Assembly (NCBI GenBank): GCA_018304505.1
Contig: JAGVWA010000004.1
Coordinates: 1-56,236 of the forward strand
Direction of reading: 5' to 3'
DNA length: 56,236 nucleotides
Origin: Nanobdellati archaeon
Lineage (GTDB): Archaea > B1Sed10-29 > JAGVWA01
Of this stretch, positions 5,188-49,681 are shown piece by piece. A program made the translations under genes and the position numbers. A model generated the notes under the pieces. That model was not told where the DNA came from and ran no database searches. It saw only the letters and a program-made list of their open reading frames with translations. Position 1 is the stretch's first letter, and the number at the start of each line of letters is the position of its first letter.

Positions 5188-5190
5188 ACA

Positions 5191-8637: not shown

Positions 8638-8653
8638 TTGCTTACAGCCTCTA

Positions 8654-17616: not shown

Positions 17617-17691
17617 GCGTCCAGTAAGTATGCTTTAAATATAACTTTTGGTATAAAATACCTGCAATACTTTTTGCAGGAGGAATATTAC

Positions 17692-17988
17692 ATGTGGCAA
17701 GACATTGAACAAATTCAGGGAACACAAGCAGGGCCATCCAACGCGGCAAATGAAATAACGGAACTGCCAATGTGCACAAGGGACATAATCCGGCTCGGCC
17801 TAGAAATTCGGGAAGCGCAACGCAGAGGTGACGTAACAGCAGAGCAGGCGTTTCAAGCGCACGTGCACGCGGGCATTGCACAGAGCGCAAGAAGCGGTGT
17901 GCTTGAGGCCCTGACAGACGCGCAACTCGAAGTCGCGGGGGTGTTCGAAAACGTGGATACATTCCCTATCGATGCGGGTGATGAATAA
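17692..17988 (+). CDS. MW-family small acidic protein
   Basis: GGAGG SD then MWQDIEQIQG. Confidence 0.75.
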   Translation: MWQDIEQIQGTQAGPSNAANEITELPMCTRDIIRLGLEIREAQRRGDVTAEQAFQAHVHAGIAQSARSGVLEALTDAQLEVAGVFENVDTFPIDAGDE

Positions 17989-18300
17989 ATGTGGGGTGAA
18001 ATACCTGTCCGCGGGGCTATATTTGATGCGGCACGACGCGCAGCAATGGCGCAATATAATGATTATCTTCTGTTGGCAGACGGCAATGTGCTGCATGAAA
18101 AAGGTGGGGTAAGTGGCACGGTTTACACCCGTGGCCACGCTGCATCTGCGCGCAACTTTCTATGGGAGAAATCGCAAGGCGTTGTTGACAAACTTGCCCC
18201 CTCTGAAGGGGCTCTTGATTACAAGCAGCGGGAGATGTTGGATTCGGCAAGAGAAATGCTCTTGCAGCTGGCGAAAAATGACTTAATGGAGGTGATTTGA
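17989..18300 (+). CDS. MW-family small protein
   Basis: MWGEIPVRGA, abuts the previous stop, GGTGA SD. Confidence 0.75.
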   Translation: MWGEIPVRGAIFDAARRAAMAQYNDYLLLADGNVLHEKGGVSGTVYTRGHAASARNFLWEKSQGVVDKLAPSEGALDYKQREMLDSAREMLLQLAKNDLMEVI

Positions 18301-18302
18301 AA

Positions 18303-18545
18303 ATGTGGGGAAGCTTAGACGCATCTTTAAAGCTTGGGGAAATCAAACCAAATAAAGTCAAGGACGCGCTTGATGATGGGATGGCAAGAGCAAGAGCGGC
18401 TATTAGGGGAGAGCTTAATGTACAAGGCAGAAATCAGACAGCGGCGTTTCACATAATGGCCGGCGAAGCCATTACAGAATTGGAACGAACCGCGCAGACG
18501 CTGTTGGACACAATTCAAGCCGCGAAACGCGAGCTCGAGAAATAG
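18303..18545 (+). CDS. MW-family small protein
   Basis: GGAGGTGA SD then MWGSLDASLK. Confidence 0.75.
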   Translation: MWGSLDASLKLGEIKPNKVKDALDDGMARARAAIRGELNVQGRNQTAAFHIMAGEAITELERTAQTLLDTIQAAKRELEK

Positions 18546-18591
18546 TTTTATAATGCATGGCAAAGCGCATTATTCTTGCAAATCGGGCACA

Positions 18592-18606: not shown

Positions 18607-19724
18607 TCTAAAACAGCCAATAGTTATGCCTCTTCGGAGGCACTATTCTTGTACGACAACAAACACAAAAAACGCAACCACTAAGGCCAAATTATTTGTA
18701 TACACCCAACATCAAACACCAACGAGAAATCACTGCACCCAGAAACTTCTTTCGACAACAGATTTCAATGACATATCATGAGGACTTGATCACTTCATAG
18801 TTAAGTCTGATGTGAGCTTGCCAGAAAGGAAAAAAACCGCAAGGAGTGGTAGCACTCTTGCGCGATTCCTTTAAAAAAAAGCGACCAAAAAATTCATTCA
18901 GTAATGGATTAACTCCAGTTGATCCTGCTGGAGGACACTGCTTTTGGAGTTCGAATAAATCATGCAAGTCAGAGAGCAATCTCGGCGAACGGCTTAGTAA
19001 CACGTGGTCAACCTGCCCTAAGGCGGGGGATAACCTTGGGAAACTGAGGATAATACCCCATAGGGAACAGACACTGGAACGTTCTGTTCTTGAAAGGCTT
19101 GCCACCTTAGGATGGGACTGCGGCAGATTAGCTAGTTGGTGAGGTAACGGCCCACCAAGGCTTTGATCTGTAGGGGCAATGGAAGTTGTGGCCCCAAGAA
19201 GGGTACTGAGACAAGGACCCTAGCCCTACGGGGTGCAGCAGAGACGAAACCTATGCAATGCGCGAAAGCGTGACATGGGGACTCCAAGTGCTCATGCGAA
19301 AGTATGAGCTTTTGTCAAGCGTAAATAACTTGGCGAATAAGGACCGGGCAATACCCGTGCCAGCCGCCACGGTAATACGGGAGGTTCAAGTGGTGTCCGC
19401 GAATACTGGGCTTAAAGCGTCCGTAGCCGGCCTGGTAAGTCCTTAGTGAAAGCTCATCGCTCAACGGTGAGAAGTGCTATGGATACTGCTGGGCTTGGAG
19501 GCGGGAGAGGTAAGAGGTACGTTAGGGGTAGCGGTTAAATGTGTTGATCCTTAACGGACCACCAGTAGCGAAGGCGTCTTACCAGAACGCGCTCGACGGT
19601 CAGGGACGAAGGCTAGGGGAGCGACCCGGATTAGATACCCGGTTAGTCCTAGCAGTAAATTATGCAGACTATGTGTCGTGCCATCTACATGGTGGTGCGG
19701 TGCCGCAGGGAAACCGTTAAGTCT

Positions 19725-19832
<108 letters not shown>

Positions 19833-19841
19833 TGGGTGGAT

Positions 19842-19878
19842 AAGTCAAAAAGTGATTATGTCGCTTTTGGCTACACAG
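19842..19878 (+). other. 37-nt hairpin insertion, relaxed BHB intron in 16S (about E. coli 947)
   Basis: Hairpin agtcaaaaagtga/tcgcttttggct; removal restores GGGTGGATGCTGCGGTTTAATTGG; central helix has one mismatch. Confidence 0.75.
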
Positions 19879-20007
19879 GCTGCGGTTTAATTGGATACAA
19901 CGCCGGACATCTTACCAGAGGTGACAGCAGAATGATGGACAGTCCGAAGGGCTTTCCTAACACGCTGAGAGGTGGTGCATGGCCATCGTCAGCTCGTGCT
20001 GTGAAGT

Positions 20008-20040
<33 letters not shown>

Positions 20041-20295
20041 ACCATTAGTTACCAGGATTCTCATTACGAGGGTCGGCACACTAATGGGACTGCCTCAGTT
20101 AATGAGGAGGAAGGAGTGGGCGACTATAGGTCCGTATGCCCCGAATCTTCTGGGCCACACGTGGCATACATTGGTAGGTACAATGGGATGCTACTCCGAA
20201 AGGAGACGCTAATCTCTTAAAGCCTACCCAAGTTTGGATCGTGGGCTGTAACTCGCCCACGTGAAAATGGAATCCATAGTAATCGCGTGTCATTA

Positions 20296-21123
20296 AATCG
20301 AGTAAGTTAGGCACACCACCATTTTGCGGAAGGATTAAATAGATCATCGTTCATAAACATAACGGTGATTATTTGTCTTTTGAAGAACTGCATCGTCTTG
20401 TTGGCTCTAAACCACTACAAATGGTTATAGCGCAGCATCCTGAGGTGATAGCATTATATAGGCTATCTTTAGGAAAAAGCCAGCGAGATTTTGCGCGTTT
20501 TCTGAATATGTCTCAAGCAAAAGTTAGTGAATTAGAAAGAGGCATTGGGAGAGTAAACAAGGAAAAGGCAGAAGAGTGGGCTAAGTTATTAAGCTCAGTC
20601 CGTCTTCTGTCAGTTCTTGAACTTGAAAATAATAGATCCCAGATACATAAACGTGGAAGGTTCTTCGGAGAATATGCTAAAAAGATGGCATTAAAGAGTG
20701 CGGAAAATGCTGCAATAATAAGTGCAACAAAAAAGAAGCCAACGCCACAAGAGCAAAGGCTTAAGTTGCTATTTGAAAATGCAGGCATAGAACACCAGCC
20801 ACAGGGGGTGTTTCCTGCACAAAATCAAAAATTTGTTGTAGATTTTGTTTTTCCGACCATCGATAATCCAAAAGTGATAGTAGAAGCCAAAGAGCTAAAC
20901 ACTTCATATAGAAAGAGGCTTTCTGTTATTGATTTAGCATATCGGGCAATTAAAATGAAACAAGCCAATCCAAAAATCAAGATGATAGCAATCATAGATA
21001 CAAATGGTTTGTTGCGGAGTTCCCGTAAAAGACTATCTCTAGATTATGATTATGTTCTAATAAATCCTTCCGATAATTTGGTGGTACAAACATTAAGAGA
21101 AGTCCTAGCTTCTTGATGTGGAT
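20296..21123 (+). other. 828-nt BHB intron in 16S (about E. coli 1363) carrying an endonuclease gene
   Basis: cgcgtg tcat ta|a atcgag...cttgat gtgg at|t cacgcg; terminal stem atcgagtaagttagg/cctagcttcttgat. Confidence 0.9.
20373..21116 (+). CDS. Intron-encoded XRE-HTH + Vsr/DUF559-like PD-(D/E)XK endonuclease
   Basis: SQRDFARFLNMSQAKVSELERG HTH; KPTPQEQRL...FVVDFVFP...KVIVEAK. Confidence 0.8.
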   Translation: MSFEELHRLVGSKPLQMVIAQHPEVIALYRLSLGKSQRDFARFLNMSQAKVSELERGIGRVNKEKAEEWAKLLSSVRLLSVLELENNRSQIHKRGRFFGEYAKKMALKSAENAAIISATKKKPTPQEQRLKLLFENAGIEHQPQGVFPAQNQKFVVDFVFPTIDNPKVIVEAKELNTSYRKRLSVIDLAYRAIKMKQANPKIKMIAIIDTNGLLRSSRKRLSLDYDYVLINPSDNLVVQTLREVLAS

Positions 21124-21248
21124 TCACGCGGTGAATGCGTCCCTGCTCCTTGCACACACCGCCTGTCAAACCACTCAAGCGGGGCTTTGGTGAGGCCGCA
21201 TCTCCTTGGTGCGGTCGAATCTAGGCTTTGTGAGATGGGTTAAGTCAT

Positions 21249-22002
21249 AAATTTGTTGTGACCTTTACCAGTAATGGTAAAGACAAACCTGGCTATATGC
21301 TGGAAACTCCGAGTATCTCAAACTACCAGAGTCTTATCAACTCCTGCCATCAAATCGATAGCAGAAATGGTGAAAATGTTTGGGTGCGGACAATCAGCAG
21401 GGAAGTCGTGATTGACCCCTCAGAGACTACACGCCGGGCTCCTATCAGAGTTGAATTAAATGAGCAAAGCATACCTCAAAGGAGCACTCCATGACGCAAC
21501 TGAGCGAAAATACACTTTCAGACTTTGTCAAAAACAACAAGCATATGTTGAATTCATTGCTAACCTCGTTAGAAAACTTGGATTCAATGCATGGACATAC
21601 AAAGAAGGCAAAACAAGAAACGTGTACATTGTAGAGTTCAGTAAAAAGATCCTTGATAGTTTCGAAATACAAACGAGACAAGACAAAATCGATTATATTC
21701 GAGGATACTTTGATGCGGAAGGGAGTGTACCGAGAAAGAAATTGGGATTTCAATATATATACATCGCGCAAAAAAGCAATCAAGAATTGTTGGAACTGGT
21801 TTCTTATCTAAATGAGTTAGGCATTGCTTGTGGAAAAATCCACGTGCCATCAACCAAAAAACCAGATTACTGGCGCTTTTACGCGTCAGCTAAATCAAGG
21901 AAAAAGTTCATAGAAACAATTGGTTCATGGCATCCCGAAAAAAGTCAACTGCTGGGGAAGATGATATAGTCCGCGCGCTATGGCGACATAGTGTACTAAG
22001 CG
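21249..22002 (+). other. Group I intron in 16S after U1498
   Basis: Exon ends in U (aagtcat), intron ends in G before aacaaggtagcc; IGS ttgttgtgac; P/Q/R/S elements atgctggaaac, aatcagcagg, tcagagactaca, gatatagtcc. Confidence 0.92.
21460..21969 (+). CDS. LAGLIDADG homing endonuclease in the group I intron
   Basis: YLKGALHDAT and YIRGYFDAEGSV motifs. Confidence 0.9.
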   Translation: MSKAYLKGALHDATERKYTFRLCQKQQAYVEFIANLVRKLGFNAWTYKEGKTRNVYIVEFSKKILDSFEIQTRQDKIDYIRGYFDAEGSVPRKKLGFQYIYIAQKSNQELLELVSYLNELGIACGKIHVPSTKKPDYWRFYASAKSRKKFIETIGSWHPEKSQLLGKMI

Positions 22003-22229
22003 AACAAGGTAGCCGTAGGGGAACCTGCGGCTAGATCACCTCCTTCCATAAGCCCACCCCAAAACTTTTAGGGGTGGGCAAACTGGGCAAAACACCAGAG
22101 CCCCTCCGGGGGCTCAACGGTGTTTTTGGAAAACACTTGAAAAATGTGCAAAGAATCGCAACACAGGAGCGCTATCGCGAATTGCGGTTTTCCTTTAATC
22201 TGGCAAGTTCATTAAAAACACGATGCCTC

Positions 22230-22301
22230 GGGCTCGTAGATCAGTGGAAGATCGCCTGCTTTGCAAGCAGGAGGCCGGGGGTTCAAATCCCTCCGAGTCC
22301 A
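22230..22301 (+). tRNA. tRNA-Ala(TGC) in the 16S-23S spacer
   Basis: gggctcg...cctgc tttgcaa gcagg...ggttcaaatcc...cgagtcca cloverleaf. Confidence 0.95.
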
Positions 22302-22359: not shown

Positions 22360-22612
22360 GAACACAGCAAGAAACAGACGAGACAAAGTAATAAAAAACA
22401 AACAAGGGAAAACAAAACAACGGAAAACAAAAAAATCAAAACAAACAAAAATCACGATCACAACAATGCATAACAAAACCACAGCAAAACACAGCAATAA
22501 AGGACCACAACAACACAACAGCAAAGAACCACAATAAAGCACCACAACAAGGCACCACAGCAAAGAACCACAACAAGGCACAACAAAAAAATCACAGCAT
22601 GAAAATACCAAA
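22360..22612 (+). repeat. A/C-rich low-complexity spacer with degenerate accacaacaa/cacagcaaag repeats
   Basis: Strongly A/C-biased top strand. Confidence 0.8.
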
Positions 22613-22658: not shown

Positions 22659-22686
22659 GATGAAGTTGCGCTGCAGCAAACAATGA
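22659..22686 (+). other. 5' strand of the 23S processing stem (pairs with 26000..26027)
   Basis: gatgaagttgcgctgcagcaaacaatga is near-perfectly complementary to tcattgtttgtcgcagcgcaacttcatc. Confidence 0.85.
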
Positions 22687-22699
22687 TTACTGAAGGGTC

Positions 22700-25600
22700 T
22701 AAATAAGCTATTTGGTGGATGACTCGGCTTGAAGTCTGACGACGGGCGTAGCAAGTTGCGATAAGCTTGGGGGAGATGCAGGCAATCCTTGATCCCAAGA
22801 TTCCCCAATCATTCCGAGAGGAAGAATCACGCGGTGAATTGAAACATCTCAGTAACCGCAGGAAAAGAAAGCAAGAGCGATTCCGTTAGTAGTGGCGAAC
22901 CAAAGCGGAACAGGGCAAACCGAATCCACCGTGGTGACGTGGTGGAAATGTGGTGTTCGGACCGTCTTCAACTTTCAAAGAGATCTCAAAGTCCCCTGGA
23001 ACGGGGCGGCGTAGAAGGTGATACCCCTGTAGAGAGGTCTGCGAAAGTCGTTATGGCGAGTTCCAGAGTAGCGTTACGTGAAAGTAGCGTGAACCCGGGG
23101 GTACCAACCCCTAACTCTAAATATGGCTCAAGACCGATAGAGGACTAGTACCGTGAGGGAATGTTGAAAAGTATCCTGAGAAGGAGCTGAAAAGATCTGA
23201 ACCCAAATAGCGATATGCGTTACTGCCTGGAAGCTAAAACCCCCGAACATTAGGAGGGGGTGTTATGCAGGGTGGTAACTTCAGTCATGAAGCACTGGGC
23301 AGGGAGTTTATTTATGTGGCGAGGCTAACCTGAAAAAGGGTAACCGAAGGGAAACCGAAAACCCGCAGCATGCGAGGGGTGGTGTCTTAAACTGGCACTA
23401 TAGTCACATGGGTAAGACCTGAAGCCTGGCGATCTACACGTGAGCAGGATGAAACCGGCGCTCAAGCCGGTGGAGGTCCGCAACTAGTGCACAATTCAAC
23501 TGGCTTAGGTGACTTGCGTGTAGGGGTGAAATTCCAATCGAGCCAGGCGATAGCAGGTTCCTATCGATACACGCCGTAGTGTGGCCTCGGTCGAGACAGA
23601 TGGCATGGTAGAGCACTAATTTGGAAGTTATGGAGAGAAATCTTCGGCTTCCTTGTTAAACTCCAAACGTGTCATCGTCGTAGAAGCCGGGAGTCGGGGC
23701 GTCGGGGTAAGCTTGACGTCCGGAAGGGGAACAACCCAGCCCATGGTTAAGGTCCCTAATAGGCAGCTAAGTGTAAATACAAACGATGTCACAACCCTAA
23801 AACAGCTGGGAGGTAGGCTCAGAAGCAGCCATCCTTTAAAGAGTGCGTCATAGCTCACCAGTCTAGGGGGGTGGCGCGGAAAATTGACGGGGCTAAAGTT
23901 GCCAACCGATACCATGGATACCAACAGTAGTTGGTAGCGTAGATAGGCGATGTGCGAGAGCAGAAGCTAGGCCGTAAGGTCTTGTGGATCTCGTTCATTT
24001 GAAAATCCTGCTGAAAGTAACAGCCACAGAACAGTGAGAACCTGTTCCGCCGAAAGGGCCAGGGTTTCTCAGCCATGCTTGTCAGCTGAGAGTAAGTCGA
24101 TCCTAAGTGCATTCCTAACCGACGTGCACAAAAGGGAATCAGGTTAATATTCCTGAACCTAACGGATACGCGCGGCGACGCATGTCCATCGCGTGACGCT
24201 TTGGGGTAGGTGAAGCACAACCGTCGTTGTGTCTAAAAGGAATAAGGTTGTGGAGTATCGTAATGATGAGAAACAACCTAAATCCTTGAATGGCCCACAT
24301 TTGTGGGTTTTGCCAAGCCCTGGAGTCCATGAAAAGCGTGATGGAAAGGATTCCGTTAGATCGTACCAAGAACTGACACAGGTGCCCCTAGCTGAAAAAG
24401 CTTAGGCGTGGCGGGCCAGCCGTCTTAAGGGAACTCGGCAAATTAGTCTTGTACCTTCGGAAGAAGAGATGCCTACCCTCCTTCGGGAATGGTAGGTCGC
24501 AGTGACAAGGGGGGAGCGACTGTTTACCAAAAACACAAGTCCTCGCTAGCCCGTGAGGGTTTGTACGGGGGCTGACATCTGCTCACTGCCAGTACGTGAA
24601 TACCTGGTACAACGGGAGTAAGCGCTGGTGAAGAGCGGGCCTAACTCTGAGGCTCAACACAAAAAGGAGTTAGGAAACAGCAACCACAACAAGCAACAAC
24701 AACCACAAAAAAAATTTGGTTAAGCAGTTAGTATACATGTATTACGCAGCCTGAAAAGGGCCTCGTAAAACCTGGCTATGTGCGGGAAACTCCGAAGTAT
24801 CCGACACTACCCGAGTCTTATCAACTCCTGCTATCAAATCGATAGCAGAAAAGGGTAAAAACGTGATCGGTGCGGACAATCCGCAGGGAAGTCGTGATTG
24901 ACCCCTCAGAGACTACACGCCAAGGGCTCTCGATTTATCGAGAGGCATGATATAGTCCGATCCTAATAGCGATATTAGGCACACCAATAATACAAAGGAA
25001 AACACAGATGCTTAAGGTAGCGTAATACCTCGTCGCTTGATTGGCGACTTGCATGAATGGTGTAACGTCTCCGCCACTGTCCCTAAGACGGACCCGGTGA
25101 AATTGTTTGCTGGTGAAGATACCAGTAATTCCTAGTGGGGCGCAAAGACCCCGTGGAGCTTTACCGCAGCCTGTTGTTATGGCTTGTTTTTGCATACATA
25201 GAGTAGTTGGGAGACTTCGAAGCAGAGTCTTCGGGTTTTGTGGAGTCGACGATGTAACACCAACTATACAAAAACAAGTTGTTTACTTCGAGAGAGGGAC
25301 AGCAGTAGGTGGGCGGTTTGACTGGGGCGGTACGCCCTTGAAACGATATCAAGGGTGCCCAATGGTCACCTCATCCGTGTTAGAAACACGGAGTAGAGAG
25401 TCAAGGACAAATGGTGGCCTGACAGTGTTCCGTACAGAGAGGAACGCTGACACGAAAGTGCGGCCTAGTGATCACCAATACTCTTTTGGTGGGAGTTTGG
25501 TCTGTCAGAAAAGTTACCCCGGGCGTAACGGGATCGTCGCGGGCGAGAGTCCATATCGACCCCGCGGTTTGTCACCTCGCTTTTGGCACGTGTCATCCTG

Positions 25601-25980
25601 GCAGTGCATAAGCTGCCAAGGGTAGGGTTGTTCATCCATTAAAGACGCACGCGAGCTGAGTTCAGTCCGTCGCGAGACAGGACGGCGGCACCTACTAGGA
25701 ATGTTGATTATCTGAGGGGAAGGCACTTCAAGTACGAGAGGAACGTGGTGTCGGCGCCTCTGGTGTACCGGTTGTCCGACAGGGCAGCGCCGGGCAGCTA
25801 CGCGCCAGCTTATAAGAGCTGAAAGCATCTAAGCTCGAAGGAGCCCCTAAAAAGAGATAGTCACTCTCAAGTACTTGTATTTGAGACGACGGCTCCCATA
25901 GAAGATGGGTTTGATAGGCACGACGTGTAAGTGTTTAGGCTTCGGCCGAGGCATTCAGCGTGCGTGTACTAAACGCCGGA
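22700..25980 (+). rRNA. rrl: Archaeal 23S rRNA with one group I intron (ends approximate)
   Basis: ggtggatgactcggct, gaattgaaacatctcagta, cttaaggtagcg, agtacgagaggaac (sarcin-ricin loop), gctgaaagcatctaag. Confidence 0.97.
24655..25010 (+). other. ORF-less group I intron in 23S after U1923
   Basis: Exon taactctgaggct | intron ...cacagatg | cttaaggtagcg; core gtgcgggaaac, aatccgcagg, tcagagactaca, gatatagtcc. Confidence 0.92.
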
Positions 25981-26072
25981 GGGACTCTTCATTACAAACT
26001 CATTGTTTGTCGCAGCGCAACTTCATCTATCAACCACGCAACAGTTTCGGCTGTTGTATTTAGTTATGCGTA

Positions 26073-26116
26073 AGCCCCTTCTTTGGAAGGGGCTGAGCAG
26101 ACTTTTTTTATTTTTT
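26073..26116 (+). terminator. Hairpin plus T-tract downstream of the rRNA operon
   Basis: agccccttc tttg gaaggggct followed by T-rich run. Confidence 0.55.
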
Positions 26117-26258
26117 GATTAAGCATAAAAATTAGTTACGCCAAGGCAATTTTTGGAACTTACATAAATCCACGGGTACAAGGGGCTTGTTATGTCTGTT
26201 TTGTTGGAATTATTGCTCTGCTCCCAAGTTAGCCAAATCGTTTAGGTTTTTTGCCGAT

Positions 26259-26759
26259 TTATCCTATCTTCCGTAGTTTTTCAAAGTAGGTTTCTGTTTC
26301 TTTTTTGAACGCCGTATCTAAGAACTGTTTTGGGCTCAGTAGCTCGATTTGTTTCTTAAATTTATTGAAGTCGCGCACGTTCCTTGTCACAATTAAGTCG
26401 CATGATTTTTTGGCGCACGTCAACTGGTAGGCATCTTCATAATGTGTACTCTTGTTTTCCAGGCAGCTCATGAATTCATTGATGCTAAGGCTTATGGGGT
26501 TCCAACTGCCACTGAAAATGTGCCTCAGGGCATTTCGAGTTTTGTCATCTGAGTCACTTATTCCTGCACGTTCGAGTTTAAAATTCAGATAATTGCCCAC
26601 GGAAAAAGGCGTCGCGTCGCTTATGTAAGCATTGAATTTTTTGTCATTTACAAGTAAAACAATTGCAGCTGAGTGCTTGTAGTGGTCAAAACTCTCTGCA
26701 AAGTACACAAGCCGGATGTAATCCATCAGGACGTTTTTGTCAATAAAAGCGCTCTTCAA
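26259..26759 (-). CDS. PIN-domain (VapC-like) toxin
   Basis: FIDKNVLMD, YEDAYQ, IVTRNVRDF. Confidence 0.85.
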   Translation of the reverse strand: MKSAFIDKNVLMDYIRLVYFAESFDHYKHSAAIVLLVNDKKFNAYISDATPFSVGNYLNFKLERAGISDSDDKTRNALRHIFSGSWNPISLSINEFMSCLENKSTHYEDAYQLTCAKKSCDLIVTRNVRDFNKFKKQIELLSPKQFLDTAFKKETETYFEKLRKIG

Positions 26760-26983
26760 ATCAAACCCTTTTTTTCAAGGTATTGAATTTGTTTTTTAGC
26801 AGCACTGTCCTCTTTTTCGACAAACCAGGCTTGAAACCCGCGTCGCTCGTTTTCTTGTTCAGTCATTAATTCGCGTATGGCTTCTCTTATCACTTCACCT
26901 TTGCTTTTGTACAAGCCGGTTCCAACCTGCGAATCTATCCAATGTTCCATGTGCTCTGTTACGTCTGCACTTACCGTGACCAT
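26756..26983 (-). CDS. Ribbon-helix-helix antitoxin
   Basis: WIDSQVGTGLYKSKGEVIREAIR; overlaps the PIN gene start. Confidence 0.85.
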   Translation of the reverse strand: MVTVSADVTEHMEHWIDSQVGTGLYKSKGEVIREAIRELMTEQENERRGFQAWFVEKEDSAAKKQIQYLEKKGLI

Positions 26984-27054
26984 GAATCCACCTTCTGACT
27001 TTTATATTGTATTCTATAGCCGGCTAAATATTTAAGGGTTTCTATTTCTCTGGC

Positions 27055-27140
27055 ATCACATTTATGGTTTCCTAAGTTATTTTAGGTTTTCCTAAATATT
27101 CGGGTTTCGGTGTCGCAGCGCAACTTCATCTATCAACCAC
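27055..27140. repeat. Composite repeat: TTAGG-N4-CCTAA palindrome block plus 30-bp copy of the 23S 3' flank
   Basis: 27055..27121 resembles 28622..28688; 27111..27140 is identical to 26008..26037. Confidence 0.9.
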
Positions 27141-27218
27141 TTTTTTTCTTTTTCTAACTATGCGTTCAGCGAGAGCTTTATATAGCAGGTTGGGCAATAA
27201 TTGTGCAGGTGATTAATA

Positions 27219-27599
27219 ATGTGGCGCACGCGAGTTTATGAAATAAACGAGATTCCAGACGACACAAAGCGGTGGATGGCGGAAAGGCAGCGAATCAATG
27301 ATGGGCGTGGCAATGTTTATGCGGATACCACGCGTATAATTAGGGAGTGGGTGCCATGTGGTGAGATTGAGGTGTACACTGACGATAAAGAAGGAAATGA
27401 CTTTACGATTGTGCGCCAGAACACACTGGAGAGGGCAATTGATTGCCGCAGCGATGCTGAACGGTTGAACTTCCTAGGGCTAAAAGACGAGGCAGCAAAG
27501 CGCTTAAGAGATGCGGGGGCGTGCGATAGAATTCTTGAATTATCTGGTGGAACCCCTGAAAGGCGCGAGTCCCACCTCGACCCGAGAATTTTTATGTGA
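27219..27599 (+). CDS. MW-family protein, paralogue of 30604..31005
   Basis: MWRTRVYEINEIP...YTDDKEGNDFT...ACDRILELSGGTPERR. Confidence 0.85.
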   Translation: MWRTRVYEINEIPDDTKRWMAERQRINDGRGNVYADTTRIIREWVPCGEIEVYTDDKEGNDFTIVRQNTLERAIDCRSDAERLNFLGLKDEAAKRLRDAGACDRILELSGGTPERRESHLDPRIFM

Positions 27600-27639
27600 G
27601 CGTAGTGTACTGTGCAGTTGGTGTAGTGTAATCCAGTTT

Positions 27640-28056
27640 TTATAAGTGCATGCTTTGCGCTTTGAAAAACAGTTCTTCTGCAAAGTCCATATAACTTTCT
27701 AGTTCTTTTGTCTCGAATGTCTTGCCGTACATGTATCCTGCGGAGTGTAGTTCGTTTTCGATTTCTAGGTATTTGTCAAAGAGTTTCTTGTCAATTGTTT
27801 TCTTGTTAAGCAGGTGGTCCCTGATGAGGAACTGCAAGGCAAGGCGGCCTTTATATGGCCGTTCCTTTCCCGGGTATCTGATTTCTTTTACACCCTGCAT
27901 ATAGAGCATTGATTCAAAAGTAGTTTCTGTAGCTCTGAAGATTTCTTCTGCAGCTGGATAGAGCCTGTCTTCGTTAAGGTTTGCTCTAGCGGATTCCAGG
28001 TATTGCTCTGCTTTTCGTAAGCCCCAGTTAGCCAAATCGTTTTGGTTTTTTGCCAT
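27640..28056 (-). CDS. HEPN-domain protein
   Basis: KAEQYLESAR.NL...AAEEIFRATE...LHSAGY; coupled to an MNT gene. Confidence 0.8.
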   Translation of the reverse strand: MAKNQNDLANWGLRKAEQYLESARANLNEDRLYPAAEEIFRATETTFESMLYMQGVKEIRYPGKERPYKGRLALQFLIRDHLLNKKTIDKKLFDKYLEIENELHSAGYMYGKTFETKELESYMDFAEELFFKAQSMHL

Positions 28057-28618
28057 GTAACACAACCCCATGGGCATGGGCTTTTATTATGAAGGGGTCC
28101 TTTTTTAGTCTTGTTAGGTAGTCTTTTTCCGAGAGCACGATTGGTATTATTGGTAGCCCGCGCGCATGTTTTTGATTGATCTCGGAAATGATTTCCTTTT
28201 TGTTTTGCGCGATTTCGTTATTTGGGAGAACAATGAGTAAATCGATGTCGCTTTGCACTGTAGCTTGCTTTTCAGCAACACTGCCGATTAAGATAATTGA
28301 GGTTATATTGTGTTTTCTCACCAGTGACGCTGCTGTCCTCTTTGCCTCGGTTTCGTAGGTGTTGGTGAGGCCTTTGAATAAGTGTTTGAGGGTCTTTACT
28401 AGAAAGTGTTCTTTGTTTATGGAGTACTGTTTTGTTTTTCCGATTCTGTGCATCTTGATAAGGCCAAGCTGGGTTAGCTCTTCGCCTTGTCTGCTTATCT
28501 CTGGCAGGGATGCGTGCGCTTCTTCTGCTAGTGCCGAAGTTGAATAAGTTTTTCCATTAACAAGGACAGAGAGCAGTCTTATCTTGACTTTGCTTCCTAG
28601 CACGTTATCTATGTACAT
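28028..28618 (-). CDS. wHTH + minimal nucleotidyltransferase (MNT antitoxin)
   Basis: IILIGSVA...SDIDLLIV; N-terminal HTH. Confidence 0.85.
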   Translation of the reverse strand: MYIDNVLGSKVKIRLLSVLVNGKTYSTSALAEEAHASLPEISRQGEELTQLGLIKMHRIGKTKQYSINKEHFLVKTLKHLFKGLTNTYETEAKRTAASLVRKHNITSIILIGSVAEKQATVQSDIDLLIVLPNNEIAQNKKEIISEINQKHARGLPIIPIVLSEKDYLTRLKKDPFIIKAHAHGVVLHGKKPKRFG

Positions 28619-28691
28619 TTTATCACATTTAGGATTTCCTAAGTTATTTTAGGTTTTCCTAAATATAAGGGTTTCGGTGTCGCAGCGCGAC

Positions 28692-29012
28692 ATGGCTGTA
28701 AAAGTAGGTCTCTTGCAAACTGAGGTAATCCATTACCCAAATTTGAAGACAATATTAGAGGTAGAGGAAGTGCTGAAAAACGCTGATGGGCTAATGAATA
28801 AAGCGCAAATAAAAAAGGCATTGCCTAAGGACATCATGCACCAAACCCTCAACGTAATCTTGGGTTATCTGGAACAAAGTGGCAAAATTCTGGTGCCAGA
28901 GAAGGGGGTTCTATGGACATACAACCCGAGCAAGAAACTAAGAATGGGCCCGATGTGCCGGAAGTCCTCGGTTCGAATCCGAGCAGCCCCATACTGTATA
29001 GCCAGTCGTTGA
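28692..29012 (+). CDS. Small wHTH-like protein with C-terminus disrupted by a tRNA fragment
   Basis: HYPNLKTILEVEEVLK...HQTLNVILGYLEQSGKI...WTYNP, then reads through the tRNA-like sequence. Confidence 0.6.
   Translation: MAVKVGLLQTEVIHYPNLKTILEVEEVLKNADGLMNKAQIKKALPKDIMHQTLNVILGYLEQSGKILVPEKGVLWTYNPSKKLRMGPMCRKSSVRIRAAPYCIASR
28958..28991 (+). other. tRNA 3'-half fragment (att-site-like remnant)
   Basis: T-arm ctcgg ttcgaat ccgag plus acceptor strand cagcccc a; no matching 5' half nearby. Confidence 0.75.
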
Positions 29013-29058
29013 TTGTCGAACGAAACTTTTTATATATACGCGTGGCTAAAAAAATAAT

Positions 29059-29379
29059 ATGTGGGACAGGAAATCCTGGGAAACTGGGGAAAAGCTGCCA
29101 AAGGAAGTTGAAGACGCAATGCTAATGAGGCCAATGATTGTTTACAAAGGCGTGCGTTATTACCCTGGGAAGGGGGACATGGTTTTTGATGACGACAATG
29201 CGGTGCACAAGGTGTTTGACGGTTTCTTAGGTTATGACCTGACGAAACTCAGAAAGGAAATCGCGAGGCAGGAAAACGACTGGCGCCAGGGCATGGAAAT
29301 TTTCCCAGGCATGGCGCAGGAATTCAAGGAATTGGCAGACGCAGCAGCAGTGATTGCCAGCCCAGCAGGCAAGATTTAG
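29059..29379 (+). CDS. MW-family protein
   Basis: TTTATATA box, then MWDRKSWETG. Confidence 0.8.
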   Translation: MWDRKSWETGEKLPKEVEDAMLMRPMIVYKGVRYYPGKGDMVFDDDNAVHKVFDGFLGYDLTKLRKEIARQENDWRQGMEIFPGMAQEFKELADAAAVIASPAGKI

Positions 29380-29403
29380 GTTTTCCTAAATATGAATCTT
29401 ATG

Positions 29404-29682
29404 CTAATAGATTTTGTCGTGGTGGCCAAAATCATAGAATTTAACATGGTCTTTTGATTTTTCATACTTGAAGATCATGACAAAACTCTTCATTATGTGC
29501 ACACGCTTAAGGGCTTGCAGTGGATTGCGTAAGTTTTTGTATCTCTCTATGTCTTCACTTGTCACGATTTCTTCAATTTTCTTCATTGTTGCGTCGTAGG
29601 TCTTTCTATCTTTCTTGTATAATTTCTTAAGTTTTTCCTTCATGGCTTGTTCTATTGAAAAGTCACGCGGTTTCAATCTCAT
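29404..29682 (-). CDS. RelE/YafQ-family toxin
   Basis: YKNLRNPLQALKRVHI...FYDFGHHDKIY. Confidence 0.85.
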   Translation of the reverse strand: MRLKPRDFSIEQAMKEKLKKLYKKDRKTYDATMKKIEEIVTSEDIERYKNLRNPLQALKRVHIMKSFVMIFKYEKSKDHVKFYDFGHHDKIY

Positions 29683-29908
29683 CCCTCAAAGAGTTTACAG
29701 AGCGGTATTTATTGAACTTGCCTTTCTTTTCCAAGTTAAGGATTTTCTTTACAAACTCCGGACGTAGTTCGCGTTCTATGATTTCTTCTCCTGTTTCCAT
29801 TATGATGAATTGGATGGCCTTGTCTTTTGAGGAAAAGCCATAGGCGCTTTTTATAATTCCAACCACTTTGTCGGCATTCCTTTCTAACGTTACAGTTACT
29901 TGGCTCAC
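29663..29908 (-). CDS. Antitoxin of the RelE-like toxin
   Basis: VVGIIKSAYGFSSKDKAI...ELRPEFVKKI; overlaps the toxin start. Confidence 0.75.
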   Translation of the reverse strand: MSQVTVTLERNADKVVGIIKSAYGFSSKDKAIQFIIMETGEEIIERELRPEFVKKILNLEKKGKFNKYRSVNSLRDEIETA

Positions 29909-30033
29909 AAGATCACCTTTATAGCATTTTATAGTAAATTAATGTATTTTGTAGTATATAATGCTTTTTGTGCACCACATAGGTTTAAGTATAAGAATAA
30001 TGCATATTGTGTGTAAGTTACGAGGGATGACTA

Positions 30034-30447
30034 ATGTGGGATTGTGAAGTTTGGGCCAAGGGACTATATGTGGAGGATCCTAAGGAGGTGCCAGAAAGTG
30101 TATGGGAAGCAATGAGGCAAAGGAACGGGGTAAAGATAGAAGATTACGATAACCTCCGGCGTGAATACACTGCCAGTACATATTACAATGGCGATACAGA
30201 TCTGATCAAGCATTACGATAGCTGGATATATAGGGGTTTTGGGGCAGCACCAACTTTCTTTAGGTGTGTTTCTAGGTATACGGATGGGCCCAATGGCGAT
30301 CACTTAACAAAGGAGAGACGAAAACTGGCAGACCTCGCACGTAAAAAGAATAACGAAGCAAATTCAATTCTTGAATTAGCCGACTGCCCGACAGAGTTCG
30401 TAGAGGTTTTCACACCAGAACGCCTAGCGAGGGTTCTGGGTAGATGA
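30034..30447 (+). CDS. MW-family protein
   Basis: MWDCEVW...EVPESVWEAM...YTDGPNGDHLT...SILELA. Confidence 0.8.
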   Translation: MWDCEVWAKGLYVEDPKEVPESVWEAMRQRNGVKIEDYDNLRREYTASTYYNGDTDLIKHYDSWIYRGFGAAPTFFRCVSRYTDGPNGDHLTKERRKLADLARKKNNEANSILELADCPTEFVEVFTPERLARVLGR

Positions 30448-30486
30448 TCTGCTTAATTACACTGGTGCATATTGGGACTGGCAACT

Positions 30487-30551
30487 GCAGCGCAACTTCA
30501 TTTATCAACCACTTTTTTTCTTTTTCCAACTAACGTTTAGTGAAAGCCTTA
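30487..30551. repeat. Third copy of the 23S 3'-flank sequence plus MW-gene upstream region
   Basis: gcagcgcaacttcatttatcaaccactttttttcttttt matches the sequence from 27115 onward. Confidence 0.85.
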
Positions 30552-30603
30552 AATAAATCATGATGCAAATAGAATACTACAAACTTATTAGGGGCGATGA
30601 TTA

Positions 30604-31005
30604 ATGTGGAGCATTAAAGAGTATGATTATAACGAAATTCCAAGACAGCTTTGGGAAGAAATGGAAACAGCAGAATCAGTACTCATATCAGAGGGTGTGG
30701 CGGCACGGTGTACGAGCGTTTTTCCAAACAAGGAGCGCATAATGCTAGCATGGCGGCCAATAGGCCCTGTTGAAATACACACTGATGATGAAAACGGGAA
30801 CCACTTCACCCTTCTGAGACAAGATGTTCTAGAAAGAGCCGAGGAATTCAGATTAAAAAGAAGAGAACAAAGGTCAGCAGGGCTATGGCATGAAGCAGAC
30901 ATATCAGAAGAAAACGCGAAAGCATGCGACAGAAGTTTAGAACTATCTGGGGGGACGCCGGAAAGGCGAGTGCAGCTCGATGATGGCCAGGGCGTTCTCT
31001 ACTAG
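30604..31005 (+). CDS. MW-family protein, paralogue of 27219..27599
   Basis: MWSIKEYDYNEIP...HTDDENGNHFT...ACDRSLELSGGTPERR. Confidence 0.85.
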   Translation: MWSIKEYDYNEIPRQLWEEMETAESVLISEGVAARCTSVFPNKERIMLAWRPIGPVEIHTDDENGNHFTLLRQDVLERAEEFRLKRREQRSAGLWHEADISEENAKACDRSLELSGGTPERRVQLDDGQGVLY

Positions 31006-31036
31006 CTTTTTATGCTATCAAGTCTTTTTCTAAATA

Positions 31037-32680
31037 ATGAAGCCAATAGAAAAAGAAATCTTTGAATTCTGGAAGCAAATCAATCCCGACATAACCTTCA
31101 AGATGGGCCTGAATGATTATGCCGCAACCATGTTCATTCCGTTTACAGAAAACGTTGCAGCGGCAAACAAGCATGTCCAGACCCTAAAAAAACGCACCAA
31201 GGACCCCCGCATTAAAAAATTTCTCGTCGCTATGGAATACTCTTACAAGTACCCGGAGCCAATGGATGGCCCGAACATAATCTTCGGAGTCATTGAAGAC
31301 CACTTAATGAAAGAAGGCATTGACGCAAAACATTTAGAGCTCTTGATAGAACAGTCATACGGCGCACTGGACGCGTACACAGAAGAGTGCTGTCACCTGC
31401 AATGGCCAATAGAAATCCGGATCCTGACGACAAATGCGTGTAATAACTTAATTTCTTTATTGAAAACTATTGAGAAAAACGCGCGCAGTAAACACCTACA
31501 GCAGGACCTGGAAAAACTCATAAACAAAGTCCGGAAGTTCAGGGACGATTACAAGGTAAAAGAAATCAAGCGCGGAGACTTCGGGGAAGTTTACCCAATA
31601 CTGAAGCGGCGCAGCAAGTACATCAACAGAAAAGGGCACTATGCACGCATACTCAAGCACGCGTACGATTACTCTGAAACCCCTGAGCAAATCGAAAACA
31701 AGGCCATGAAATGGCTTGAAGAAGACTTAAAGGCACTTAAGCTGATCAAGAAAAACATTTCCCATATGTACAACTGCAAGAACACAACCAAAGACATTGA
31801 AAAGGAAATCAAGAAACGCACAGGCTTGCCTAGAGCGGATCTCATAGACACTGCGAAGAAGCTCAACAAGCTCCTCAGGCCCATAATGGAAAAGAACTTC
31901 ATCGAAATCAGCAAAACACACAAATCCGAGATAATAGAGACCCCAAGTTACCTGACAACAGTCCTGCCGACAGCCGCATTGACGACCTTCAACAACCTCG
32001 GCAAGGAATTCAAGAACGTGATTTACATTACCACTGACGAGAAAGCAGCGCCAGCAGACTCGATGCCGAGCCTATTGAACACGTTCATTCATGAGGAATA
32101 CGGCCACGGGGTCAACATGAGCAACACAGTTAATGCATACCACAAGAAGAAAATCAGCGTGCTCAGCGTCATTTCAGACTTAGACATTCCAATAACAGAA
32201 GGCATTTCATTCAACAGGGAATATGAAACAATGGCGTACTTCAAGGACCTGCTGATAAAAGAGCTGACAAAGGAAGAGCGGGCTCTGATTCATTTCCTTG
32301 AAAAATTTGGAGGGCTCGAGGAAATAGTCGACTTCATGGAATACGAATTGTACAAGTGGCGTGTCATTAGGTTCCTGAGGGCTATATGTGATGTGCGGGT
32401 CAACACCAACAAGCAGGGCTATTATCGCTTTGTAGAGTGGGCATATCGATTTACGGGCTTAAAGAGGAAGGACGTGTATGACCAAACCTTCTTTTTTATT
32501 GAAACTCCAGGGTATCCTCCAGCATACTCCCTGGCCGGCATGTTCTTGATGGATCTACAACGTAACTCCAATGCACCGTTGAAGAAGATCAATACGTACG
32601 CAGCATCTGTTGGTTTCCCCGGCAAGAGCATCTGGGAAAAGCAGCTTACACAGGAGTTCCCAGCACAGGTTTACAAATAG
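31037..32680 (+). CDS. DUF885-like zinc metallopeptidase
   Basis: FIHEEYGHG...ITEGI...RAICDVRV...PGYPPAY. Confidence 0.7.
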   Translation: MKPIEKEIFEFWKQINPDITFKMGLNDYAATMFIPFTENVAAANKHVQTLKKRTKDPRIKKFLVAMEYSYKYPEPMDGPNIIFGVIEDHLMKEGIDAKHLELLIEQSYGALDAYTEECCHLQWPIEIRILTTNACNNLISLLKTIEKNARSKHLQQDLEKLINKVRKFRDDYKVKEIKRGDFGEVYPILKRRSKYINRKGHYARILKHAYDYSETPEQIENKAMKWLEEDLKALKLIKKNISHMYNCKNTTKDIEKEIKKRTGLPRADLIDTAKKLNKLLRPIMEKNFIEISKTHKSEIIETPSYLTTVLPTAALTTFNNLGKEFKNVIYITTDEKAAPADSMPSLLNTFIHEEYGHGVNMSNTVNAYHKKKISVLSVISDLDIPITEGISFNREYETMAYFKDLLIKELTKEERALIHFLEKFGGLEEIVDFMEYELYKWRVIRFLRAICDVRVNTNKQGYYRFVEWAYRFTGLKRKDVYDQTFFFIETPGYPPAYSLAGMFLMDLQRNSNAPLKKINTYAASVGFPGKSIWEKQLTQEFPAQVYK

Positions 32681-37816: not shown

Positions 37817-38093
37817 GAGAAGTGGAACGAGGCTAACGCTCCTTTCTGCAAAGAACGTAGTTCTTTGAGACCTCAACGAAACCCCGGTTTCGTTGCAGGC
37901 GCGGAGTGAGGAAGTTCTCCCCACCCGTCCAACTTGTTTGGATGATTAAAAACACCGGAGACGGTGAGGGCAGGATCAGAAACGCTACCCGGCATTTCGG
38001 TGTTGGGATGAAACGTGCTTGTCCTAGGTGCAAGGCAGTACGCCGCTTAGTAGAATGCCTCATGTACAGAAGGGAGACTATGAGCCACTTCTC
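37817..38093 (+). ncRNA. rnpB: Archaeal RNase P RNA
   Basis: P1 gagaagtgg/ccacttctc; CR-I gaggaagttctcccc; CR-IV gcttagtagaatg; CR-V acagaagggagactat pairing with CR-I. Confidence 0.9.
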
Positions 38094-39208: not shown

Positions 39209-40549
39209 TTGGTGGGGGTGTTATCCGTGTTCGAGGATTTGTTACTTTGGGAAGGATTGGAGGATAATGTTAATTTTGTCTTTAATAGATGCACAGGGCG
39301 ATGGTTAATTGTTGACGACGAAGCCAAGAACGCAATCATTAATTATGATAAGTTATCAGAGAGAAGAGGGATTGACGAATTATTAGAAAAATATAAATTT
39401 CTGGAAAAACTTGAGAAAAAACGAACAAGTGGAAGCCTACTTGTAGTGTTTCACATGACTCAAAATTGCAACTACAAATGTGTTTATTGCTACGCTGGTG
39501 CTGGTAAGGGTGCAAGTTTAGATATTAAAAATGCACTACAAATGGTGGATGTACTGGGAACGCAAACCAAATTCAAGAAGAGTGAAATAGAATTTCACGG
39601 GGGAGAACCATTGCTCGAGTTTGAGAAGATAAAACAGGTTATAGAATATGCAAAGAAATATGATAACATAAAGTTCAGCATGCAAACAAATGGTTCTCTG
39701 TTAGATATGGAAAAACTTGAATACTTAACGCAAAATAAAGTTGGTATTGGGGTAAGTATTGATGGTCCAGCAATGATACATGATAAGCAAAGAGTAGCAC
39801 ATGATGGGGCAGGAACCTTTGAGAAAACAAACAATGTCCTAAATAGTTTTGAAGATAAGAAAAGAAAAGTTGGTATTATAACAGTTTGTACTACAAATAC
39901 GATAGAGCATAAGGAGGATTATTTTAATTTTCTAGTTGGTAATGGAATTAAAAGTTTCAGTATAAATCCAATGTTTCCAATGAGGCGAGGATCAGAGAAT
40001 AATCAGCTGGTACCAATAAATGAGCAATTACTCGAAATGACAAAATTCATGATAGAAAAAGTAAAATCAAACAACAAAACAGTAAAGCATAAGATACGAT
40101 TCCGAAATATTGATGAGATAATATCAAAGATAGTTAATCCCGATTATTATTACAGGTGTTTGGAATCTCCATGTGGGGCGGGCAGAGATATGGTTGGACT
40201 AGGAGAAGACGGAAATGTCTATATGTGTGAGGAGCTAGTAGGGATAGAGAAATTTAAAATAAGAAATAACAATTACGATTTAGATAAAATATTAGAGAAC
40301 GGAACTAAAAGAGCTGCGGATTGTGCATCGCGAAATATAAAAAAATGCCAGGAGTGCGCATTCATAAACTACTGTCCCGGAACTTGTTTAGGTAAACGTT
40401 ATGCACAAACAGGTTCAGAAAAAGAAGCATCAACGCTTTGCGAATTCTACAAACAACTAATCAAAATATGTCTCTTGGGAATATATAAAGAGGGGTGGAC
40501 TAATGGTTACTTAGTTGATGAAAGTGATGGACAAATGGCAGGTAATTGA
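39209..40549 (+). CDS. Radical SAM/SPASM maturase (anSME-like/cyclophane-forming type)
   Basis: CNYKCVYC, EFHGGEPLL, MQTNG, VSIDG, CLESPCGAG...YMC...CQEC...CPGTC...LC. Confidence 0.9.
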   Translation: MVGVLSVFEDLLLWEGLEDNVNFVFNRCTGRWLIVDDEAKNAIINYDKLSERRGIDELLEKYKFLEKLEKKRTSGSLLVVFHMTQNCNYKCVYCYAGAGKGASLDIKNALQMVDVLGTQTKFKKSEIEFHGGEPLLEFEKIKQVIEYAKKYDNIKFSMQTNGSLLDMEKLEYLTQNKVGIGVSIDGPAMIHDKQRVAHDGAGTFEKTNNVLNSFEDKKRKVGIITVCTTNTIEHKEDYFNFLVGNGIKSFSINPMFPMRRGSENNQLVPINEQLLEMTKFMIEKVKSNNKTVKHKIRFRNIDEIISKIVNPDYYYRCLESPCGAGRDMVGLGEDGNVYMCEELVGIEKFKIRNNNYDLDKILENGTKRAADCASRNIKKCQECAFINYCPGTCLGKRYAQTGSEKEASTLCEFYKQLIKICLLGIYKEGWTNGYLVDESDGQMAGN

Positions 40550-40565
40550 ATTAGCGTGGTGCTCA

Positions 40566-49676: not shown

Positions 49677-49681
49677 AACAA

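Follow-up and report, generated by a model that had tools for sequence, protein, structure and literature searches.

Integrons, mostly in the form of clusters of attC sites lacking integron integrases (CALINs), have been reported in archaea, DPANN groups included, with frequent toxin–antitoxin (TA) cassettes, and TA pairs amount to 10.5% of the annotated archaeal cassette proteins in that report (PMC9668308). For archaeal elements mobilized by tyrosine recombinases, tandem integration and integrase loss are documented in a review whose text has 0 occurrences of rRNA (PMC8371274). In the bacterium SAR11, the hypervariable region HVR2 is a 48-kb island of cell-surface genes between 23S and 5S, for which rRNA genes were proposed as recombination anchors (PMC2217521), and a later analysis suggests that the operon is exchanged together with the island (PMC4033161). 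A limited literature search, which is no proof of absence, found no description of an rRNA flank as an archaeal integration site. Here we describe a 5-kb island directly behind the 23S rRNA gene of an archaeon, in which copies of the 3′ flank of that gene recur between TA pairs and small orphan genes.

The window, that is, the whole stretch analysed, is a 56-kb segment of archaeal chromosome (56,236 nucleotides, nt; contig JAGVWA010000004.1 of assembly GCA_018304505.1, from a Nanobdellati archaeon). An earlier note, made from the letters of this window, had read the 23S flank as a recurrent insertion or duplication site building an integron-like array. Our results support the involvement of the flank in at least two rearrangement events, one that made two full copies (A and B) and a stub (D), and another that made copy C; the integron-like part of that proposal did not hold, as neither attC sites nor an integrase were found. 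We put forward, with roughly even chances of being right, that the copies are passive recombination scars in a small, TA-rich and rearrangement-prone island after the rRNA operon, rather than sites of cassette capture.

Results

Copies of the 23S rRNA 3′ flank

The 23S rRNA gene occupies positions 22690 to 25992 of the plus strand (Rfam LSU_rRNA_archaea, 2483.7 bits). The two strands of its processing stem, 5′ at 22659–22686 and 3′ at 26000–26027, both read on the plus strand, form an inverted repeat (I2) complementary at 26 of 28 positions and co-fold into one helix adjoining the ends of the gene. A 30-mer that begins within the 3′ strand (copy A, 26008–26037) recurs exactly at 27111–27140 (copy B), also on the plus strand, as the earlier note had stated; none of 100 shuffles contained any match. 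The identification of the 30-mer with the 3′ strand of the stem stands for 20 of its 30 nt (26008–26027) and fails for the other 10, which lie outside the stem and have no upstream partner, so that pairing of the whole 30-mer was rejected. The 15-nt core GCAGCGCAACTTCAT is found three times on the plus strand (26012, 27115 and 30487) and once on the minus strand, at 22660–22674 within the 5′ strand of the stem, for an expected number of 0.16.

Copy C (30487–30532, plus strand) contains 26 nt of the 30-mer with the single mismatch that had been noticed before (25/26 identical to copy A), followed by a T-run and 13 further bases. We call X the 26 nt common to copies A, B and C, and Y the 20 nt common to B and C only. 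Copy B and its Y, a T7CT5C-type T-run at 27141–27160, together span 27111–27160 of the plus strand. Copy C with its version of Y (Y′) is identical to 27115–27160 at 44 of 46 positions, T-run included, and its stretch CTGCAGCGCAACTTCAT is complementary to the 5′ stem strand at 17 of 17. Copy A is followed by segment Z (26038–26118, plus strand), which occurs only there and consists of two hairpins and then a T-run; it is terminator-like, with an RNA fold of −37.9 kcal/mol (z −4.4) and a terminator-like match at 26038–26057. The 11-nt stub reported at 28678 is real (stub D, TGTCGCAGCGC, 28678–28688), but instead of being a free-standing copy it is the right end of a 67–70-nt repeat, D4. These 11 nt are common to A, B and D, and the core GCAGCGC is common to all four. 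A search of genome_contigs (185,579 species genomes) with the pattern GCAGCGCAACTTCATYTATCAACCAC gave 0 matches.

The spacer between the tRNA-Ala gene (22230–22301) and the 23S gene contains a CA-rich tandem array at 22401–22609, with some eight ACCACAACAAGGC-like units of roughly 13 nt each, and the end of the 30-mer together with the start of segment Z (CAACCACGCAACAG) resembles such a unit.

A hybrid junction between two related units

The copies differ in what lies on either side of the core. In copy A, the left arm is the 23S flank, the core is TGTCGCAGCGC and the right arm, R1, is AACTTCATCTATCAACCAC, leading into Z. Copy B has D4 on its left and R1 on its right, followed by Y and the small gene MW1. 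Stub D shares the D4 arm with B and continues into a right arm of its own, which runs into the start codon of an open reading frame (ORF) at 28692, while copy C combines a third kind of left arm with R1, Y′ and the gene MW4. Copy B is a hybrid, with a left arm of the stub D type and a right arm of the copy A type joined at the 11-nt overlap.

The segments that begin with A and B are themselves related. Units U1 (26008–27110, 1103 nt) and U2 (27111–28677, 1567 nt) are adjoining, colinear homologues that share three blocks on the same strand and in the same order (26008/27111, 26223/28022 and 27055/28622) at 93–100% identity: the 30-mer (100%, E 8e-10), a 33-nt piece of the junction between the MNT and HEPN genes (94%, E 4e-8) and D4 (93–94%, E 2.7e-24). 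The first copy of D4 (27055–27124) is promoter-like, carries the palindrome TTTAGGTTTTCCTAAATAT and ends in the 11-nt core, overlapping copy B; the second (28622–28691), 93–94% identical to it, ends in stub D. The palindrome, 19 nt long and TATA-like, has three exact matches in the whole window and no more with up to three mismatches, 0.02 being expected, and the third exact copy of this promoter motif (29375–29393) is a relic stranded between two convergent gene ends. The 33-nt piece (repeat D8) in U2 (28022–28054) is where the stop of MNT overlaps the start of HEPN; in U1, its 94% identical counterpart belongs to a minus-strand relic (26189–26255) that joins an MNT 3′ end to a HEPN 5′ end and lies directly after the stop codon of a PIN gene. 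By tblastn this relic retains the last 8 amino acids (aa) of MNT (8/8) and 14 of 25 residues of the HEPN N-terminus, with an in-frame stop. Because of this dead MNT/HEPN piece, the third, stranded palindrome and an orphan tRNA 3′ fragment described below, we regard the island as full of relics.

The colinear same-strand blocks in adjacent units, and a hybrid junction built of the distal left arm, a microhomology and the proximal right arm, are the marks of a tandem duplication. Since A consists of the 23S arm, core and R1, B of the D-type arm, core and R1, and D of the D-type arm, core and its own right arm, the set is the one expected from a single unequal exchange at TGTCGCAGCGC. We infer that the 11-nt core in the 23S stem strand (A) crossed over unequally with the same microhomology before the 28692 ORF (D), which would yield the order A, unit, B, unit, D. 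The earlier note had named one old tandem duplication as an outcome that would undo its proposal: a single unequal crossover at the A/B/stub junction comes close to it, except that the event would not be old.

Stub D lies in a perfect 15-nt palindrome, TGTCGC-AGC-GCGACA (28678–28692), that extends into the start codon of the 28692 ORF and folds on either strand into a 6-bp hairpin, possibly an operator or the mark of a leaderless start.

Toxin–antitoxin pairs

TA pairs are the usual cargo and stabilizers of such islands, and family matches support the three pairs that had been proposed between the copies, all on the minus strand. In U1, a ParD/RHH antitoxin (26756–26983; TIGR02606, 50.3 bits for a cut-off of 46.2; Pfam ParD_antitoxin, 36 bits) is paired with a PIN-domain toxin (26259–26759), whose match to Pfam PIN_3 (E 3.4e-05, 25.1 bits) is below the curated cut-off of 27. 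In U2, the gene at 28028–28618 encodes a winged helix-turn-helix (wHTH) and a nucleotidyltransferase domain (Pfam NTP_transf_2, 38.8 bits, cut-off 21) and is a candidate antitoxin of the MNT/MntA-like kind, its NCBIfam matches to an ArsR-type HTH and to MntA both being below cut-off; downstream of it lies a HEPN-like toxin gene (27640–28077), PaREP1-like by a Pfam match (E 2.5e-4, 21.4 bits) below the cut-off of 24.4. The third pair consists of a DUF2683 protein (29663–29908; Pfam, 35.2 bits, cut-off 27), the presumed antitoxin, and a toxin of the RelE/YafQ type (29404–29682), which matches TIGR02385 (RelE_StbE) with 29.8 bits (cut-off 27.9) and TIGR00053 with 54.1, below the cut-off of the latter. 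The genes overlap within the pairs by 4, 50 and 20 nt, respectively, and as adjacent, overlapping small genes that match toxin and antitoxin families, the three pairs are predicted to be TA systems of type II or type VII.

Orphan genes on the plus strand

Five small ORFs of the island are on the plus strand, and four of them start with Met-Trp and are referred to as MW genes: MW1 (27219–27599, 126 aa), MW2 (29059–29379, 106 aa), MW3 (30034–30447, 137 aa) and MW4 (30604–31005, 133 aa). The previous description of the plus-strand genes as MW genes is right for these four; the remaining ORF, at 28692–29012, does not belong with them. Demonstrable homology is confined to MW1 and MW4, the genes preceded by copies B and C, which are paralogues as had been proposed (43% identity, phmmer 1.8e-24); their third codon positions are 37% identical, that is, saturated, and the same codon is used at 24 of 54 conserved residues. 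MW2 and MW3, both orphans, gave only marginal E-values (0.003–0.35) against each other and MW4, so that one family of four MW genes is unproven and MW2 and MW3 are at best distant relatives.

An exhaustive profile search of 1.84 billion representative proteins returned five matches at E ≤ 1e-3: the two proteins of the window itself, a 118-aa protein (P0003, E 1.2e-5) and two long proteins with short, weak matching stretches. The MW1/MW4 family is, in this collection, a near-orphan with P0003 as sole outside relative. A word-based protein search found nothing beyond the protein itself, no Pfam, NCBIfam or PHROGs family matched even at E ≤ 5, and an alignment-based search of genome_contigs for related loci gave 47 pattern stretches, of which 0 were confirmed. 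Structure models were of little help, the ESM Atlas model being poor (pLDDT 0.52) with structural neighbours below a TM score of 0.5, and the AlphaFold2 model (pLDDT 61) having 0 Foldseek matches in the PDB at E ≤ 0.001.

The tail of the 28692 ORF reads through an orphan tRNA 3′ fragment of 34 nt on the plus strand (28958–28991), comprising the T arm and the 3′ acceptor strand (Rfam tRNA, 19.1 bits, below the gathering score), where ARAGORN finds no tRNA gene. Derivation of the fragment from the tRNA-Ala of the operon was rejected, as the sequences differ. The 28692 ORF itself has no Pfam, NCBIfam or PHROGs family match, nothing meaningful in a phmmer search of the PDB and a poor single-sequence model (pLDDT 50.5); its look-alikes in the ESM Atlas (score 0.96) are unnamed archaeal hypothetical proteins of 86–99 aa, most commonly of the phylum Nanobdellota.

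Met-Trp starts also occur in small ORFs outside the island, at 17989 and 33500 and, on the minus strand, at 35119, 38092 and 1485, several of them with a GATGAT or GGTGAT ribosome-binding site just upstream; these ORFs have no detectable similarity to each other or to MW1–MW4. Small genes here show an excess of Met-Trp starts.

Integron and integrase signatures

The reading of the island as an integron-like array is not supported: no recombinase, attC core or folded site was found, and the gene orientation is mixed. The statement that no recombinase is visible was borne out, since Pfam finds no recombinase domain in the 65 ORFs of the window, nor do scans with NCBIfam and PHROGs; the 11 ORFs of the island leave no non-coding gap above 235 nt, and therefore no room for an integrase pseudogene. 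In CALINs, an integrase next to the array is absent by definition. An attC site consists of R″ and R′ core sites around an imperfect palindrome that folds as single-stranded DNA. Pairs of attC-like core sites 47–167 nt apart, as detected with a consensus pattern (RYYYAAC ... GTTRRRY) and not with a covariance model, numbered 0 on either strand at 25900–31200 and 10 in the whole window. None of eight single-strand DNA folds of the repeat copies had a z below −2 (z −1.20 to +1.26 against shuffles). Of the 11 ORFs, the six TA genes lie on the minus strand and the other five on the plus strand, and TATA-like motifs and GGTGAT-type ribosome-binding sites can be read ahead of the operons.

The direct repeats that bound two of the segments, one of 30 nt and exact and one of 46 nt and near-exact, come from the 23S trailer and stem and not from the mature RNA, and their arm pattern lacks a proper attL. 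No similarity to integrases was seen in the 28692 ORF, whose tail enters the tRNA fragment, and searches of plasmid and phage collections in 'distant' mode gave no match to similar DNA. The GC content of the array (0.38–0.46), considered as a sign of foreign origin, is near the window mean of 0.452 and uninformative either way.

Genomic context

Both sides of the island are occupied by housekeeping genes, among them those for arginyl-tRNA synthetase, DNA ligase, the MC1 chromatin protein and a DRG-type GTPase. The closest database proteins are only 41% identical for the 547-aa neighbour of the island, whose cluster has 6 members, and 49% for the arginyl-tRNA synthetase; the few matches with names are labelled 'archaeon', 'Nanoarchaeota archaeon' or similar. 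Together with the Nanobdellota look-alikes of one island ORF, this suggests that the lineage is deep, poorly sampled and DPANN-like. RNase P RNA is encoded at 37817–38093. A 5S rRNA gene was not found after the 23S gene nor elsewhere in the window.

The 16S gene (18912–20352, plus later 3′ pieces) is apparently interrupted twice near its 3′ end: positions 1349–1438 of the small-subunit (SSU) rRNA model align to 21162–21250 and its final positions to about 22006–22033. The first insertion (20353–21161) holds a 247-aa HTH_3 ORF, and the second is a group I intron (21239–21448, 49.8 bits, just below the gathering score) with a LAGLIDADG ORF at 21460–21969; the arms of the 16S processing stem (18813–18860 and 22164–22211) enclose both. 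The 23S gene also contains a group I intron on the plus strand (24720–24979; Rfam Intron_gpI, 66.2 bits), which shares blocks of 88–98% identity (repeats D5, D7 and D11) with the intron near the 16S 3′ end (21285–21435), which suggests that both rRNA genes carry recent copies of a single intron. Directly upstream of the rRNA operon, the region 16700–18550 has a GC content of 0.50–0.55, compared with 0.45 for the window, and small orphan ORFs that are packed or overlapping (16669–17616, 17674–17988, 17989–18300 and 18297–18545), possibly a second stretch of foreign or variable DNA beside the operon.

Elsewhere in the window, a radical SAM gene is twice followed by one for a PEP-utilizing 'mobile'-domain protein, in separate pairs at 3756–6240 and 39209–40913, and a third radical SAM/SPASM gene is found at 7525–8673; these may form a recurring module for modification or maturation. 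At 47355–52846, a HerA/DUF87-type ATPase (773 aa, with a C-terminal winged helix) is directly followed by a 1054-aa ORF without family match.

Discussion

In the interpretation that we favor, the flank copies are scars left by unequal recombination, and two routes would lead to the A/B/D set. A tandem duplication might have been followed by decay of the proximal copy, in which MNT was replaced by RHH–PIN and the Y–MW1–HEPN portion was lost, and decay of a redundant MNT–HEPN copy fits this route. Alternatively, a single exchange between two chromosomes carrying alternative alleles of the locus (left boundary X, right boundary D4) would account for the arrangement more economically than duplication plus decay. 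Copy C, with X′Y′ ahead of MW4, would most simply represent the older or original junction between the 23S flank, a T-run terminator and an MW gene, pushed downstream by additions. Oligo-T tracts like Y terminate archaeal transcription, and the succession 23S, X, Y and MW gene would correspond to the ancestral end of the operon, the two XY elements being kept similar by recent origin or conversion.

Several observations weigh against such a history. The homology between U1 and U2 is patchy and amounts to only about 130 nt, with RHH–PIN unrelated to MNT–HEPN and Z unrelated to Y–MW1. Copies A and B diverge abruptly, into Z and Y respectively, just after nt 30, and a plain duplication needs extra events exactly at that boundary, whereas an inserted circle carrying the 30-mer would directly explain both sharp edges. 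The XY elements of B and C, identical at 44 of 46 positions, stand beside MW1 and MW4, with their 43% protein identity and 37% identical third positions, and in the adjoining promoter region the next 57 aligned bases are identical at only 38. XY must therefore either have arisen well after MW1 and MW4 separated or be under selection, which would not be predicted of passive scars. In addition, homology starts at almost the same place on the left in B and C, no more than 4 nt apart (26008 and 26012 in the coordinates of A), a coincidence that hints at a preferred site of breakage. Stacking of circles or of DNA from relatives, or selection on XY, would explain the sharp edges and the conservation of XY better than the ancestral-junction history does.

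The first of these alternatives, in which insertions are added repeatedly at the rRNA flank and no dedicated enzyme takes part, is in our opinion possible though on the unlikely side. DNA bearing the flank, either circles looped out between two copies or fragments from relatives, would recombine with the resident copy by a Campbell-type single crossover, or by homology-facilitated illegitimate recombination anchored on the rRNA operon, and thereby stack segments behind the 23S gene, ahead of the older copy. The exact 30-nt direct repeats that bound a 1073-nt segment, with sharp edges on both sides, and the 46-nt repeats (44/46) that bound the next 3.3 kb are consistent with this process, as is the anchoring role proposed for rRNA genes in the SAR11 hypervariable island (PMC2217521); the near-identity of XY beside anciently diverged MW1 and MW4 would fit segments arriving from diverged relatives whose flank is conserved for rRNA processing and termination. 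The colinear relic blocks, however, make U1 and U2 related by descent and not independent arrivals, 26–46 nt is generally considered short for efficient homologous recombination, and the element was not found among the 185,579 species genomes of genome_contigs. A stronger version, in which the 3′ flank of the single rRNA operon (stem strand and T-run) is a genuine anchor where TA-stabilized segments are repeatedly stacked and from which they can loop out as circles, seems to us unlikely, and we judge in the same way that this deep-branching, DPANN-like archaeon would operate such a platform with a recombinase encoded elsewhere or by homologous recombination on the 26–46-nt element. Among the observations, the near-perfect XY beside anciently diverged MW genes and the coincident left edges are those that an anchor accounts for best, and a recurrent anchor in any form is, overall, a doubtful but not negligible prospect.

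If the flank were instead an att site, served by an integrase acting in trans or since lost, the array would be a series of tandem decayed elements, as known for archaeal elements that target tRNA genes. The short core GCAGCGC common to all four copies, with shuffled arms, and the origin of the repeat in the sequence flanking a stable-RNA gene on its 3′ side, a position comparable to tRNA 3′ ends, would suit this idea, and so would the tandem integration and integrase loss documented in archaea (PMC8371274); the orphan tRNA 3′ fragment overlapping the end of a small ORF resembles the borders of partitioned integrases of the SSV type (PMC7253208). We nevertheless consider site-specific integration very unlikely: the window yielded neither an integrase nor pieces of one, no inverted binding arms can be read around the core in A, B and C, the expected attL (23S arm, core and right arm of the element) is absent, the segments of 1.1 and 3.3 kb carry no replication or transfer genes, and the text of the same review is silent on rRNA. 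Selection on the 46-nt XY as a functional cis-element, a terminator for upstream transcription combined with a protein-binding site, appears improbable, though less so; more speculatively, XY might be an operator of the MW1 and MW4 proteins that they also bind at the end of the rRNA operon. XY is 96% identical next to a promoter region with 38/57 identities and saturated synonymous sites, it occupies the same position ahead of both paralogues, and Y is an oligo-T tract of the kind established to terminate archaeal RNA polymerase. XY would, however, be upstream of the TATA-like motifs of MW1 and MW4, as read from the sequence, and so outside their mRNAs; copy A lacks Y, the MW proteins show no recognizable DNA-binding domain (their models are poor), and two instances allow no statistics. 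Finally, repeats may give rise to chimeric or looped contigs in metagenome assemblies, rRNA regions are generally hard to assemble, and this lineage is apparently uncultured and poorly sampled. An assembly artefact is, even so, very unlikely: the exact repeats do not exceed 30 nt and the longest similar block is 70 nt, lengths probably exceeded by ordinary reads and by the final k-mers of the assembly, the copies are distinguished by point changes and by their flanks, and MW1 and the arginyl-tRNA synthetase are each reported on a 65,285-nt contig, MW1 on 8 contigs in all. With repeats of 30–70 nt and distinct flanks, a misassembly would be unlikely.

The significance of the island depends on which of these histories applies. 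As a field of scars, it is an ordinary example of TA-rich variable regions growing by unequal recombination, its one curiosity being the piece of rRNA processing stem carried along. Were the flank to act as a recurrent anchor, small archaeal genomes would be using the indispensable end of the rRNA operon to receive accessory genes, a testable route of gene gain in lineages seemingly without classical mobile-element machinery, and an rRNA-anchored cassette platform of this kind would be functionally parallel to the integron while made of different parts.

Comparison with known systems

Integron cassettes are mostly promoterless and in one orientation. The genes of the island face both ways with promoter-like motifs of their own, the long copies are only three, two of the units are related by descent, and in place of attC cores or a folded single-strand site the repeats derive from an rRNA flank and a promoter region. 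What the island shares with integrons and CALINs (PMC9668308) is a compact run of small genes with repeated boundaries and prominent TA pairs; like CALINs, it has no adjacent integrase. Compared with islands at tRNA and tmRNA genes (PMC8371274), direct repeats from the 3′ side of a stable RNA likewise bound accessory segments, with relics, TA genes and a tandem arrangement at one locus; in contrast to them, the repeat here is outside the mature RNA, in the 23S stem and trailer, neither integrase nor att arms were found, and the segments are of 1.1–3.3 kb.

The arrangement departs from a plain tandem duplication in that the homology is patchy (about 130 nt), one unit has a different TA pair, and a single event of this kind leaves a further and better conserved repeat, XY at copy C, unexplained. 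It agrees with what is generally known of microhomology-mediated tandem duplication in its hybrid junction at a shared 11-nt core and in the colinear blocks of both units. In terms of position, the nearest analogue is HVR2 of SAR11, a type of island whose content differs between strains beside a conserved rRNA flank. HVR2 belongs to a bacterium and no duplicated rRNA flank is mentioned in the parts of its description that were consulted, whereas the present island, in an archaeon, consists of TA pairs and orphan genes over 5 kb. In both cases, conserved rRNA sequence is a proposed recombination anchor, and the island is directly beside an rRNA operon, which for HVR2 is the single operon of a small genome, and bears no integron signature (PMC2217521).

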